A stretch of 23,288 nt of DNA, taken from the NCBI GenBank assembly GCA_039091855.1, contig JAWCLA010000004.1, forward strand, positions 14,045 through 37,332. Reading direction: 5' to 3'. A model generated the notes under the pieces. The model was not told where the DNA came from. It ran no database searches and was given only the letters and a program-made list of their open reading frames with translations. Position numbers and translations under genes: made by a program. The DNA is from Candidatus Aenigmatarchaeota archaeon (GTDB lineage Archaea > Aenigmatarchaeota > Aenigmatarchaeia > QMZP01). Positions 3-5,828 of this stretch are shown here, one piece after another. The stretch's first letter is position 1; every line of letters starts with the position of its first letter.

Positions 3-659
3 AAGTGCGTGACAGAGAACATAGGGATTGAGAAGATTGTTAAAAACGTGGTGTCCAATCCTAACATAAGATACATGATAATATGCGGAAAGGTTCCGAT
101 GGGACATTTCGTTGACAACGCGATAATTTCCCTCATAGACAACGGTGTGGACGAGGAAGGGAGGATCATAGGTGCAAGGGGCGGAATTCCTGTCGTGAAA
201 AATCTCTCCAATGAGGAGATAGAGAGGTTCAGGAAGCAGGTCATTCCAATCAACATGGCAGGAGAGACTGACACAAAGAAGGTTATGGAAAGGGTTGAGG
301 AGCTTTTTGAGAGGAATCCCGGACCTTTTGAGGGAGGGCCTCTCTCTGTTTCGGAAGAGATACAGAGGGTTGAGGCACATCACACAGAAAGGGACTATGT
401 GGCTGATCCCAATGGATATTTCACAATTCATCCCAACAAGGAAAAAGGTGAGATTGTTGTCCACCACCATAACATAAATGGGAAAATCACAAAGATTGTG
501 GCAGGAAAAACAGCTGAGGAGATATACCACACAGTAGTTCGGCTCGGGCTTGTTTCCAGGATGGAGCACGCCGCATATCTTGGAAGGGAGCTCGCGAAAG
601 CCGAGCTCGCTTTGAGGAAAAACCTGGATTACGAGCAGGACAGGGAACTTGATTTTTGA
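3..659 (+). CDS. MtrA/MtxA-like corrinoid-binding domain fused to a C-terminal DUF4346-like domain (5'-truncated by the window)
   Basis: Frame is open from nt 3 (KCVTENIGIEKIVKNVVSNPNIRYMIICG..GH..LIDNGVDEEGRIIGARGGIP..IERFRKQV), matching MtrA motifs including the GH cobalt ligand. The C-terminal DPNGYFTI...HAAYLGRELAKAE...YEQD is the DUF4346 signature. Confidence 0.85.
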   Translation, partial: KCVTENIGIEKIVKNVVSNPNIRYMIICGKVPMGHFVDNAIISLIDNGVDEEGRIIGARGGIPVVKNLSNEEIERFRKQVIPINMAGETDTKKVMERVEELFERNPGPFEGGPLSVSEEIQRVEAHHTERDYVADPNGYFTIHPNKEKGEIVVHHHNINGKITKIVAGKTAEEIYHTVVRLGLVSRMEHAAYLGRELAKAELALRKNLDYEQDRELDF

Positions 660-686
660 AATGTGTTATTTAAAGGAGGTATGTAA

Positions 687-1463
687 ATGGAGAGGCAAAA
701 CGTTCCATACAAACCGCTTGTGGTAAGCGGGGAGACGCTTGGAGAAGCTTGGGAAAAATCGGTAAGGATGATGATGGAACAAGGATACAACAGGTTTGTC
801 AAGGCTCCGGAATACCAGACATGGACGAAAGATTCGCCTATGTTCATAATGGTTTCGGACCCAATGAAGGAGCCGAGGCTTTCCCCAAAGGCTCCTATAA
901 CAAGAAGCATGGCAGAGGAGTATGCGCACAGTTTGATACACGGTCATTCAAAGGACAAGGAGAACAGCTTTGAGTACACCTATTACGCGAGACTGAGGCA
1001 CTATCCTGACTGTCTCGTGAGGGCTGGCGCACCGCACGTTGCGGACGAGCATCAGAACAGAGAGTATATCCATAAGGTTTCCGGTGGGAAGTGCATAATG
1101 CAGCGGCTTGACCAAGTTGAGGAGGCAATAAAAATATTCAGGAAAGACCCAACAAGGAGGACAGTGGTTTTGCACACGTGGATTCCTTTCAGGGATTTGG
1201 CAAAGTTCACTCCCGAGAGGATAGACACATCCTCGCCCTGCCTGGTAATAATGCATCCTCAGGTTGTTGAGGAAAAGCTGCATATGAATGTGGTTATGAA
1301 GACTAATGACTTGTACAGCGCCTGGCCGGGGAATGCATACGCTTTCACTGCGCTGCAGAAGTATATGGCTGACGAACTTGGAATAGGAGTTGGGCACTAC
1401 AACCATTTCTCGGTGAGCATGCAGGTTTACGAGGAGGTTTACGAGGCGGCAAGAGGGGTTTAA
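687..1463 (+). CDS. thyA: Thymidylate synthase (ThyA-fold), archaeal type, with atypical motifs
   Basis: F-x-YTY..RL, DQV..P-T-RR, catalytic PC, MKTND (canonical MRSND), WPGN, SMQVY (canonical SAHIY). SD aggagg upstream. Confidence 0.8.
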   Translation: MERQNVPYKPLVVSGETLGEAWEKSVRMMMEQGYNRFVKAPEYQTWTKDSPMFIMVSDPMKEPRLSPKAPITRSMAEEYAHSLIHGHSKDKENSFEYTYYARLRHYPDCLVRAGAPHVADEHQNREYIHKVSGGKCIMQRLDQVEEAIKIFRKDPTRRTVVLHTWIPFRDLAKFTPERIDTSSPCLVIMHPQVVEEKLHMNVVMKTNDLYSAWPGNAYAFTALQKYMADELGIGVGHYNHFSVSMQVYEEVYEAARGV

Positions 1464-2967: not shown

Positions 2968-3023
2968 ATCTCTCCTTAAATAGTTGATTTTTGAATATTA
3001 TAAAGAAAGTTTGCAGGTGTGCT

Positions 3024-3584
3024 ATGATACTTCCAGACCACGAGATTAAGAAACTCCTTAAAGAGGGAAAGCTTGTCATAGAGCCGCTTGATGACCCTGA
3101 GACGCAGATACAGCCGGCCTGCGTGGACTTGAGGCTGGGCTCTGAGTTCAGGGTATTCAAATACACGTCAGAGGCTTTCATAGATTCGAGGAACCCGAAG
3201 GAATACACGCAGACATTTGTGACAGACGGAAAGCCTTTCATCCTTCACCCTAAGGAGTTCGTTCTCGGTATCACGAAGGAAACTATAAAGATACCGCCTG
3301 ACATTGCTGCCTATGTTGACGGAAGGTCATCGCTCGGTAGGATTGGCATAACAGCTCACATAACTTCAGGATGGGTAGATCCTGGATTTTCAGGAAGGCT
3401 TGTTCTTGAGATTTCAAACCTTGGAAAGATGCCAGTAACCCTCTATCCTGGAATGAGGATATGCAAGCTCCTTTTGTTTAGAATGAGCTCGCCCTCGGAG
3501 GTTCCATACGACAAGAGGAAGGGCGCGAAATACATAGGCCAAAAAACAGTTTTGGAGAGCAAAATACACAGCGAAAATGAATAA
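3024..3584 (+). CDS. dcd: dCTP deaminase
   Basis: MILPD.EI, IQPACVDLRLG, GRSSLGRIG, VDPGFSGRLVLEISN, LYPGMRIC. Start moved to ATG 3024 after SD caggtg. Confidence 0.95.
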   Translation: MILPDHEIKKLLKEGKLVIEPLDDPETQIQPACVDLRLGSEFRVFKYTSEAFIDSRNPKEYTQTFVTDGKPFILHPKEFVLGITKETIKIPPDIAAYVDGRSSLGRIGITAHITSGWVDPGFSGRLVLEISNLGKMPVTLYPGMRICKLLLFRMSSPSEVPYDKRKGAKYIGQKTVLESKIHSENE

Positions 3585-4577: not shown

Positions 4578-5828
4578 TCATCCTACCATTACATTCATAA
4601 ATGCCTTTGCTATCATCTCCTCCTCATACCCTGCATTCAGAAGGTCTCTTGTTATTTTTTCCCTGCTCTCGTTTCTTCGCAGGCTCTCGAGTATGTGCTC
4701 CTTTATTATTTCAATGTCATCAAACTCGTTTGGTGCTGGGGGAGGCAATGGGTAAGTTGGATATGGCTTCCTTTGGACAGTGGACTCCCTGAGCTTTGTG
4801 AATATGTTGCCCTTTTCATACGAGGGTTTTGGTGGGGAAAAGGTTTCAGGCTCAGGCGCAACATACCTTGGGCCTGGCCTTGGCGCGGGTGGTATCTCCC
4901 TCTTTGGCGGTGGAAGAAGCTTTTCCATCTCCTCCTCAGGCGTTGGTTTTGGCTTCTCGTGTTTTGTTTGAAATGGCTCAACCTTCTTCTCCCTGAATGC
5001 TGGCTTTTGGCTTTCTCTCAGAATTTCTTTTCCCCTTTCCTCATAAACCCTTCTTTCAAGGGAATTAAGCCTCATATCGAGATGCTTTATCCCGTCCATA
5101 TAATAGTTTGAAAGTTTTTGCACCCTGTCTGTAAGCTGCGTTATCACATCGTTCAATTCCTTCACTCTCTGCTCAAACCCGCTTGCAATCTGCCTTATGC
5201 CTTCGGTGTCTGGCTTGTCCTTTTGCTGCCCGAGAGATTTTACCTTGTCGTCAAGCTGCGAGATTTTTTCAACTATTGCCTTTATCTCTCCCTTGTCTTT
5301 TTCGGGCGCTGCTTTTAAGCCCTCAATCTTGTCATACATCTGCTCAAGGACTCCCTCTATTTCATCGAACCTTTTGCCGAAATCCGAATTCTGCTTCTCC
5401 AAAGCCGAAACCCTGTCTATTATCTCCCTGATTGCGTCAGAGTATCCCTTGCCTGAGGATTTTTCTGTCCGCAGCTCAACAAAATCCTTGTGGAGATTGT
5501 TCACCTTGTCAGTGAAGATCTCAACCGCCTGCATAATCTCCTCGTTCCTGTTCCTCAGCTCAATCACCTGCTTTTCCAGAGATTCTGACTTTTCCACAAG
5601 CTCCATTAATCTTTTCTTGGCTTGCTTGTCCTCACTGCCTTCAACCAATGACCTATTAAACTCAGCCATTACTGCCTTTTTATCCGATATGGTTTTTTTG
5701 GGTGGTGGGGGTATGTCCTGCTTTTTTAATGCGATTTCAGAAACAGCTGGTTTTTTTGGCTTTTCAACAGACGCTGGCTTTTTAGTTTTTTCGGAATCCT
5801 TTTGCTTGGAGAGTTTTTTTGATTTCAT
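4578..5828 (-). CDS. Coiled-coil hypothetical protein with a Pro-rich linker and a short C-terminal helical domain
   Basis: 416-aa ORF with a Lys-rich N-terminus, a long heptad-patterned middle, a Pro-rich segment and C-terminal IKEHILESLRRNESREKITRDLLNAGYEEEMIAKAF. Confidence 0.8.
   Translation of the reverse strand: MKSKKLSKQKDSEKTKKPASVEKPKKPAVSEIALKKQDIPPPPKKTISDKKAVMAEFNRSLVEGSEDKQAKKRLMELVEKSESLEKQVIELRNRNEEIMQAVEIFTDKVNNLHKDFVELRTEKSSGKGYSDAIREIIDRVSALEKQNSDFGKRFDEIEGVLEQMYDKIEGLKAAPEKDKGEIKAIVEKISQLDDKVKSLGQQKDKPDTEGIRQIASGFEQRVKELNDVITQLTDRVQKLSNYYMDGIKHLDMRLNSLERRVYEERGKEILRESQKPAFREKKVEPFQTKHEKPKPTPEEEMEKLLPPPKREIPPAPRPGPRYVAPEPETFSPPKPSYEKGNIFTKLRESTVQRKPYPTYPLPPPAPNEFDDIEIIKEHILESLRRNESREKITRDLLNAGYEEEMIAKAFMNVMVG

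Follow-up and report, generated by a model that had tools for sequence, protein, structure and literature searches.

A possible corrinoid-partnered unit for thymidylate synthesis in Aenigmatarchaeota and CPR bacteria

Introduction

What would a relative of the methanogen corrinoid protein MtrA do when it is fused to a DUF4346 domain and encoded next to an enzyme of the thymidylate synthase (TS) fold? This question is raised by a stretch of 23,288 nucleotides, here called the window, from a Candidatus Aenigmatarchaeota archaeon (assembly GCA_039091855.1, contig JAWCLA010000004.1, positions 14,045 to 37,332; G000:C33:14045-37332 in our labels, where G stands for genomes, C for contigs, L for loci and P for representative proteins, and where A1 is an alignment of 18 relatives). 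The genome of the window, G000, has 689 kb in 38 contigs and is 84% complete. We use the word module for the pair formed by the MtrA-like/DUF4346 protein and the divergent ThyA-fold protein, hereafter the ThyA-like protein.

To our knowledge, only two routes to thymidylate (dTMP) are established, ThyA with dihydrofolate reductase (DHFR) and the flavin-dependent ThyX, and both draw the carbon from methylene-folate. Our overall explanation of the module, which we hold at just short of even confidence, is that it may be a two-component, corrinoid-partnered unit of dTMP synthesis. A sequence-only reading of the window had proposed a one-carbon (C1) module linked to dTMP or to another modified pyrimidine and possibly replacing DHFR. 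The link to dTMP and the replacement of DHFR gained strong comparative support from adjacency, co-occurrence, fusions and gene absences, while another modified pyrimidine came out as less likely than dTMP. A literature search, with subscription journals and supplements outside its scope, returned nothing on DUF4346 or on MtrA homologues tied to thymidylate synthesis.

Results

Pairing of the two genes

We scanned genome contigs for relatives of the MtrA-DUF4346 protein, took the best 80 of 452 as a neighbourhood set, and sought the ThyA-like gene in these loci by tblastn. It was found in 16 of the best 80 loci, all of them within the 20 closest. These 20 loci (L003-L022) belong to Aenigmatarchaeota and to several groups of the Candidate Phyla Radiation (CPR)/Patescibacteria. 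The gene lies directly downstream in 14 of the 16 and within 1.7 kb in L007 and L020. The four misses among the 20 closest are two loci that stop at a contig edge right after the MtrA-like gene (L013, L016) and two that have other neighbours (L014, L015). The dcd gene, which encodes dCTP deaminase, is present in 17 of the best 80 loci, again all within the 20 closest, and the CPR gene order reads dcd, MtrA-DUF4346, ThyA-like, dTMP kinase (tmk; TIGR00041, 154 bits) and deoC. Identity to the window pair covaries between the two proteins over the 16 loci (Pearson r = 0.85), a value that shared descent would give as well.

The same association holds at the scale of genomes. Among 151 genomes of the window's phylum (the archaeal sample), 17 have a strong ThyA-like match and one more, G083, has a weak one. 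MtrA+DUF4346 is encoded by 17/17 of the genomes with the strong match, with both genes at most 2.5 kb apart on one contig in 14 and on separate contigs in G044, G121 and G140. The linkage remarked on by the sequence-only reading is thus conserved in relatives, both in 16 of the 20 closest loci and across the phylum. G131 and G132 showed full-length MtrA-DUF4346 but no ThyA-like gene; in G132 the MtrA-DUF4346 gene lies on a small contig.

Fusions join the same set of domains. Our genome search returned open reading frames (ORFs) of 465-610 residues in which an MtrA-like part at the N-terminus and a DUF4346 part at the C-terminus lie about 1 kb from each other. Pfam assigns the architecture MtrA-Thymidylat_synt-DUF4346 to L083 (G083:C3, 2379-3770, minus strand; 464 aa), which adjoins a thymidylate kinase gene, and to L084 (G061:C15, 1873-3324, plus strand; 484 aa), which adjoins a dcd-like gene. 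A HMMER search of 1.84 billion proteins gave 2446 matches at E <= 1e-3, from which we domain-typed 10 long representatives: three are MtrA-DUF4346-TS fusions (P0249, P0310, P0349), one is an MtrA-TS-DUF4346 fusion (P0337), one is a DCD-MtrA-DUF4346 fusion whose domain order is that of the CPR operon (P0243, 508 aa), and the remaining five are MtrA-DUF4346 with unannotated extensions. The A1 search among proteins of 651-2000 aa found no relative, the fusions falling in the range of 382-651 aa, and a scan of viral contigs found no relative either.

A variant operon in G073 (L085, G073:C2:17000-23500) splits the module over four genes, namely MtrA (194 aa), MtrH, DUF4346 alone (96 aa) and ThyA-like. 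Its MtrH (PF02007, E 1.5e-51) is the sole one found among the 151 phylum genomes, and a divergently oriented gene for serine hydroxymethyltransferase (SHMT) adjoins the operon. Because neighbourhood, co-occurrence and fusion all associate the two proteins, we consider it very likely that they work as one unit.

The more distant relatives (L023-L082, e.g. L024, L025, L031, L039) belong to free-living bacteria, including Nitrospirota, Acidobacteriota, Paenibacillus, Clostridium, Bacteroidota, Verrucomicrobia and others, and are 33-45% identical. A ThyA-like neighbour occurs in none of these 60 loci, where we found ArsR-type regulators (21), heavy-metal P-type ATPases (10), pumps of the resistance-nodulation-division type (9) and CusB/HlyD proteins (4). 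Proteins of this type carry a Cys-rich N-terminal extension of about 105 residues (KCWxCGC ... YDCLGCxxCxP) that may bind an iron-sulfur (Fe-S) cluster or a metal, and they could be corrinoid proteins of metal or metalloid metabolism.

The corrinoid-type domain

The window protein scores 131.2 bits against PF04208 (cut-off 25), and the profile of 18 relatives matches the solved structures of MtrA with high significance (5LAA, E 1.9e-59; 8Q3V, E 1.1e-55; 5L8X, E 6.2e-51). In the profile alignment to these structures, H35 falls on His84 and E5 on Glu54, and both residues are invariant across A1; the GH motif that had been noticed in the window is G34-H35, with H35 as the equivalent of His84. In the available excerpt of Wagner 2016 (PMC4915002), His84 is the axial ligand of MtrA and Glu54 its hydrogen-bond partner, tied to a conserved meander segment, GAIPF...EN. 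This meander reads GGIPVVKN in the window protein, which keeps the GAIP...N motif in part. When family members were aligned to one hidden Markov model, 231 of 265 had kept the equivalents of both His84 and Glu54, among them the window protein and four of the eight TS-fused forms, whereas 34 had no such ligands, mostly by a change from His to Phe.

The window protein belongs to the same fold family as MtrA, and differs from it in build and in context. We found no membrane helix of the MtrA kind in the window protein, whose chain ends in DUF4346 instead, and its company is that of dTMP genes and not of a methanogen complex that methylates coenzyme M. Its TIGR01111 score (125.2) lies below the cut-off of 249.15. 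Searches for the partners of MtrA were negative: there is no other mtr gene within the window, as had been stated from the sequence, and no MtrA copy besides the window gene in a PF04208 search of G000; MtrH was found in 0/5 genomes, namely G000 and four other module genomes, where MtrB-G were not searched one by one; and the alpha subunit of methyl-coenzyme M reductase is found in 0/5 genomes of the genus, G000 included. The non-methanogenic character proposed earlier therefore stands, and the window protein is a soluble, non-methanogenic MtrA homologue. It very probably binds a cobamide, judging from its conserved ligands. G000 also encodes an adenosylcobalamin-dependent ribonucleotide reductase of the NrdJ type (TIGR02504, 735.9 bits; G000:C34:795-2594, minus strand, locus L088), and the organism must therefore obtain cobalamin, by scavenging, for the synthesis of deoxynucleotides anyway.

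These ligands also bear on a regulatory or scaffolding role, according to which the MtrA-like/DUF4346 protein would sense cobalamin or another ligand, or assemble the dcd product and the TS, with the C1 unit coming from elsewhere. The loss of His and Glu in 34/265 members suggests a non-catalytic role there, ArsR-type regulators stand beside the free-living relatives in 21/60 loci, coordination with the B12-dependent reductase of G000 would make sense, and the family is fused to different enzymes of the pathway, dcd and TS. Yet in the ThyA-linked clade conservation is very strong both at the corrinoid ligands and over the MtrA core as a whole, the DCD fusion is explicable by read-through between adjoining genes of the CPR operon, and such a role would not account for dTMP synthesis in the absence of SHMT, FolD, DHFR and ThyX. 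We regard it as quite unlikely.

The ThyA-like protein

Pfam recognizes the second protein as Thymidylat_synt (PF00303, 42.8 bits; cut-off 24.3), and its match to the methanogen-type TS family TIGR03283 (123.1 bits) stays under the cut-off of 174.55. By sequence, even the best entries of the PDB match weakly (MilA CMP hydroxymethylase, E 1.1e-5; ThyA, E 3.9e-4). The AlphaFold2 (AF2) model (pLDDT 84) nevertheless has the TS fold, and its top Foldseek matches are MilA (E 1.7e-11) and the phage deoxycytidylate (dCMP) hydroxylase AfhB, which depends on flavin adenine dinucleotide (FAD) (9IQC/9IQU, E 4.5e-11); many ThyA chains also match, at E about 1e-10. AfhB with its FAD is a precedent for a TS fold that uses another cofactor, although it differs from the module in substrate (dCMP), in reaction (hydroxylation) and in having no corrinoid partner.

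The residues C185 (in SSPC), R157, R158, D208, N216, H240 and Y248 are invariant in 38 sequences. By profile alignment to E. coli ThyA, C185 corresponds to C146, R157/R158 to R126/R127, D208 to D169 and N216 to N177, and the position of R166 is occupied by K205. We take C146, R126/R127, D169 and N177 to be the catalytic cysteine and the residues that bind deoxyuridylate (dUMP) in E. coli ThyA, and presume like roles at the aligned sites. The sequence alignment to ThyA is limited to the C-terminal half, residues 137-256, and the N-terminal half has no detectable match. In ThyA the N-terminal half holds much of the folate site, and W80, W83, L172 and F176 of the E. coli enzyme make hydrophobic contacts on the folate side; the equivalents of L172 and F176 in the ThyA-like family are S/N211 and G215. 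Two further cysteines, C109 and C136, are invariant and peculiar to the family; they lie inside a low-confidence insertion of the model. In sum, the protein shares with ThyA and with the TIGR03283 synthases the TS fold, the catalytic Cys, the Arg pair, the equivalents of D169 and N177 and the dcd/tmk surroundings, and it differs from ThyA in its unmatched N-terminal half, in the extra C109 and C136, and in the genomic company of DHFR (0/7 against 21/21, see below).

Since the best PDB matches are MilA and AfhB, and not ThyA, the enzyme might be thought to make another modified pyrimidine nucleotide, such as a hydroxymethyl or hydroxy derivative, in place of dTMP. We find this very unlikely. 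N216 is an Asn as in the uracil-specific ThyA, whereas MilA has Asp at the aligned position, a difference which we take to set the specificity for uracil. In CPR bacteria the gene is followed by that of dTMP kinase. Moreover, such an activity would leave the cell with no source of dTMP, given that there is no other TS (ThyX in 1/17 and canonical ThyA in 0/7 of the genomes) and no thymidine kinase (TK; 0/5).

Archaeal and CPR ThyA-like proteins are 54-60% identical, a level which suggests that the gene has passed between these two sets of symbionts, the archaeal DPANN and the CPR. A complex prediction with two copies of the ThyA-like protein of L004 and P0016, each with its own alignment, gave ipSAE values of 0.00 and 0.01 for a mark of 0.32, which speaks neither for nor against binding.

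The DUF4346 domain

DUF4346 is recognized in the window protein with 89.6 bits (PF14251; cut-off 29.6), so that both this domain and PF04208 score over their cut-offs and the fusion described from the sequence is borne out. The AF2 model of the domain (pLDDT 94) has three strands followed by two helices. In 77 sequences the polar residues D20, H74, Y77, E81 and Q97 are invariant and E39-H40 is almost so (numbering of the folded piece). Searches by structure were negative: the best Foldseek match in the PDB had an E of 0.14, and no solved structure matched convincingly; a wide VIA-align search gave a best Z of 6.2, for ribosomal and EVH1-like chains, where the usual noise level is 7-8; and a search of the ESM Atlas with the DUF4346 part returned no usable match. 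At the level of sequence, DUF4346 matches the C-terminus of TIGR00284, a protein resembling dihydropteroate synthase (DHPS) (E 6.7e-17, model positions 401-497). Together with the TS fusions, this confirms that the domain occurs with pterin-binding and TS domains; in TIGR00284 it follows a pterin-binding barrel, and in the window protein it follows a corrinoid domain. An N-terminal MtrA-like domain in TIGR00284 was also considered and dropped, the match being confined to the C-terminal DUF4346 part.

Genes absent from module genomes

In G000, searches for ThyX, DHFR_1, Pterin_bind, SHMT, FolD (THF_DHG_CYH_C), MtrH and thymidine kinase all came back empty. SHMT, DHFR, ThyX, FolD, MtrH, TK and Formyl_trans_N are likewise absent from the closed CPR genome G001 (CP179887.1, 0.69 Mb, reached via L010). 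Thymidine kinase was found in 0/5 module genomes and DHFR neither in G000 nor in G001-G005, which agrees with the absence of a canonical DHFR expected of a module that replaces it. In the archaeal sample, ThyX is present in 89/151 genomes overall, in 1/17 module genomes versus 88/134 of the others (Fisher test, p = 2e-6, a descriptive value because the genomes are related and mostly incomplete metagenome-assembled genomes, MAGs), and SHMT is present in 77/151 overall, in 1/17 module genomes (G073) versus 76/134 of the others. The module and ThyX are thus largely mutually exclusive in this sample. ThyX likewise makes dTMP with no need of DHFR; it differs from the module in its unrelated fold and its flavin cofactor, and SHMT is usually retained in those genomes of the phylum that have ThyX, whereas module genomes do without it.

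For bacteria we used 101 genomes of the order of G001 (the CPR sample), seven of which carry the ThyA-like gene. SHMT was found in 1/7 module genomes versus 62/94 others, canonical ThyA in 0/7 versus 21/94, and DHFR in 0/7 versus 21/94. The 21 genomes with DHFR are exactly the 21 with canonical ThyA, which provides an internal control: the method therefore recovers the classical coupling of the two enzymes, and the ThyA-like enzyme escapes it.

Could the ThyA-like protein then be an ordinary folate-dependent ThyA that uses folates taken up from outside, the MtrA-like gene being a functionally unrelated neighbour? The catalytic residues of ThyA are kept, symbionts import many cofactors, and folate-cycle genes are common in CPR bacteria generally (folA 54.8%, glyA 81.3% and folD 79.7% of 4581 genomes surveyed, in the excerpted text of PMC11974145). 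The adjacency of the genes over two domains of life, their 17/17 co-occurrence, the independent fusions in two domain orders, and the contrast within one CPR sample between canonical ThyA, with DHFR in 21/21 genomes, and the ThyA-like enzyme, with 0/7, leave this explanation only the slimmest chance.

The lack of DHFR (0/7 CPR module genomes, G000, G001-G005) also fits a redox role, in which the corrinoid protein would substitute for DHFR. The methylene group would come from a tetrahydropterin or from formaldehyde, and cob(I)amide would give two electrons, in order either to reduce the exocyclic methylene intermediate, as the flavin does in ThyX, or to re-reduce the dihydropterin. The equivalent of D169, D208, is kept, DUF4346 is attached elsewhere to dihydropterin-releasing or pterin enzymes (the DHPS-like protein of TIGR00284 and MtrH), the Cys-rich N-terminus of the free-living relatives may hold an Fe-S site like that of cobalamin reductases, and enzymatic activation of formaldehyde for nucleotide methylation is reported in the available text of PMC8316439. 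On the other hand, proteins of the window type have no Fe-S-like extension and no Co(II)/Co(III) reductase was identified, SHMT and FolD are missing, so that a source of methylene-pterin would be missing too, and the known role of the MtrA fold is to carry methyl groups (excerpt of PMC4915002). We therefore hold the redox role to be unlikely in either variant.

The ThyX genes of the phylum are themselves often tandem, double-Thy1 ORFs of about 450-590 aa, frequently located directly beside SHMT; examples are G067:C11:15280-16503, G101:C18:13133-14356 and G046:C2:73173-74411.

Gene layout of the window

The coordinates of the module and of dcd are given in Table 1. The stop codon of the MtrA-like/DUF4346 gene (657-659) and the ATG of the ThyA-like gene (687) leave a gap of 27 bp, and dcd lies about 1.5 kb further on, both as read from the sequence. 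The likely true start of dcd, which is part of the conserved neighbourhood, is the ATG at 3027, which yields the start MILPDHEIKKLL common to its relatives.

The window opens inside the MtrA-like gene. Directly before it, a scaffold gap of 10 N (G000:C33:14035-14044) splits the gene and shifts its frame, and the remaining N-terminal part, about 55 residues, was found upstream of the gap, in a different frame and outside the window (G000:C33:13913-14035). The upstream piece covers positions 4-44 of the MtrA-like/DUF4346 profile and the window piece positions 45-263; the two pieces cover consecutive positions and are therefore a single gene of about 270 codons (about 270 aa) broken by the gap. 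Gene callers will give a truncated MtrA-like protein at this place.

Table 1. Positions of the module genes, their domains and dcd in the window
Feature	Position	Strand	Basis
MtrA-like/DUF4346 gene, 3' part (218 codons + stop)	3..659	+	Pfam and profile matches; 5' end open
MtrA-like corrinoid domain, residues 2-117 of the window ORF	6..353	+	PF04208 E 4.1e-38, model 49-164 of 173
E5 codon 15-17 (MtrA Glu54); H35 codon 105-107 (MtrA His84)	within 6..353	+	
DUF4346 domain, residues 135-213	405..641	+	PF14251 (PterinBD-DUF4346) E 2.4e-25
Spacer of 27 bp, with Shine-Dalgarno AAGGAGGT at 673-680, 6 nt ahead of the ThyA-like ATG	660..686	+	
Divergent ThyA-fold enzyme, 258 aa, probable thymidylate synthase; C185 codon 1239-1241	687..1463	+	
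dcd (dCTP deaminase)	2991..3584	+	TIGR02274 216 bits

The other genes of the window include archaeal housekeeping genes, among them those for L10e, an archaeal glutamyl-tRNA synthetase, the CCA-adding enzyme, RadA, an RPA-like protein and a DnaG-type Toprim protein. A gene for a TIGR01177/Trm14-like RNA methyltransferase (104 bits, under the cut-off) separates the ThyA-like gene from dcd and runs on the other strand (1714-2967); it is placed likewise in the two closest loci, L003 and L004. Another gene of the minus strand (4578-5828) encodes a protein of 416 aa whose N-terminus is rich in lysine and whose long middle part resembles a coiled coil; it also has a proline-rich stretch, and its Pfam matches are weak, sub-threshold and of the coiled-coil type.

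Discussion

Our results suggest that the MtrA-like/DUF4346 and ThyA-like proteins are likely, as a unit, the cell's thymidylate synthase, because the module largely takes the place of other synthases in the genomes that carry it, has the Asn of uracil-type enzymes, is flanked by dcd and tmk, and occurs where there is no TK. Whether the corrinoid itself takes part in the chemistry is a further step. The conservation of its ligands, and the genomes with neither a source of methylene-folate nor DHFR, incline us to think that the corrinoid would be directly catalytic, which we find somewhat probable.

Our proposal for the reaction, tentative and a little under even in our estimation, is that a methyl group would pass from the corrinoid to dUMP in a relay like that of MetH. 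The ThyA-fold protein would bind dUMP and activate C5 through its conserved Cys, as ThyA does, and the MtrA-like/DUF4346 protein would be its corrinoid-carrying partner, in presumed contact with it. As in MtrA and MetH, the cobamide would alternate between the Co(I) and methyl-Co(III) states; in the latter it would transfer its methyl group, as an electrophile, to C5 of the Cys-activated dUMP and so return to Co(I). In this relay dTMP would be formed without methylene-tetrahydrofolate and no dihydrofolate would be released, which would explain the absence of SHMT, FolD, DHFR and ThyX. Candidate donors for the re-methylation of Co(I) are a methyl-pterin, as in the variant operon with mtrH, or S-adenosylmethionine.

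Such a relay would follow the logic of MetH and of MtaABC-type systems, where a corrinoid in the His-on form moves methyl groups between donor and acceptor enzymes by switching between Co(I) and CH3-Co(III). The module would do the same, except that its acceptor would be a carbon nucleophile, the C5 of dUMP, on an enzyme of the TS fold. Compared with three-component methyltransferases, it has a carrier by homology, the ThyA-like protein as a candidate acceptor, and a donor enzyme, MtrH, found only in G073 among the 151 genomes. Since MtrH methylates MtrA from methyl-pterin, its presence inside the G073 module fits the relay.

Several observations weigh against this interpretation. Foremost, most module genomes have no recognized enzyme to load the methyl group: MtrH was found in 1/151 genomes (G073) and Pterin_bind is absent from G000, in searches that did not extend to other donor families. 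D208 is invariant, and since its equivalent D169 presumably contacts the pterin in E. coli ThyA, a pterin could still be bound. The fused MtrA-TS-DUF4346 proteins L083 and L084, and four of the eight TS-fused forms checked, have lost the counterparts of His84 and Glu54; not every TS of the fused architecture, it appears, needs a corrinoid, and proteins like L083 and L084 would be either a degenerate form or a form with another function. In G017, G034, G036 and G039, long ORFs that run from an MtrA-like to a DUF4346 part, likely the fused form, are found together with ThyX and SHMT. The replacement of ThyX has its exceptions too: one module genome of the archaeal sample, G121, carries a fragment of ThyX in an open frame of 93 aa, on a separate contig, and ThyX is present in 2/7 CPR module genomes (G190, G205) versus 49/94 others. 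Finally, most genomes are incomplete MAGs, and relatives are not independent samples.

The genomic argument made here for the module is the same in kind as the one that led to ThyX. It opens the possibility, which we rate as clearly short of even, of a third, cobalamin-dependent thymidylate route that would work without methylene-folate, DHFR or flavin and would have spread between DPANN and CPR by transfer. The methyl-corrinoid from which the TS-fold enzyme would methylate dUMP would sit either on the MtrA-like/DUF4346 partner or on a fused domain. Such a route may also be relevant to methanogen-type thymidylate synthases, whose C1 donor is unsettled.

The module has consequences for annotation as well. 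The genes of the relatives are annotated as 'tetrahydromethanopterin S-methyltransferase subunit A', and mtrA is treated as a gene exclusive to methane metabolism in the available text of PMC10904782. In CPR and DPANN genomes this label misleads. If the corrinoid is catalytic, the module would represent a new class of enzyme and a new use of B12 in the synthesis of DNA precursors, and it would explain how some ultra-small symbionts synthesize DNA without a folate cycle.

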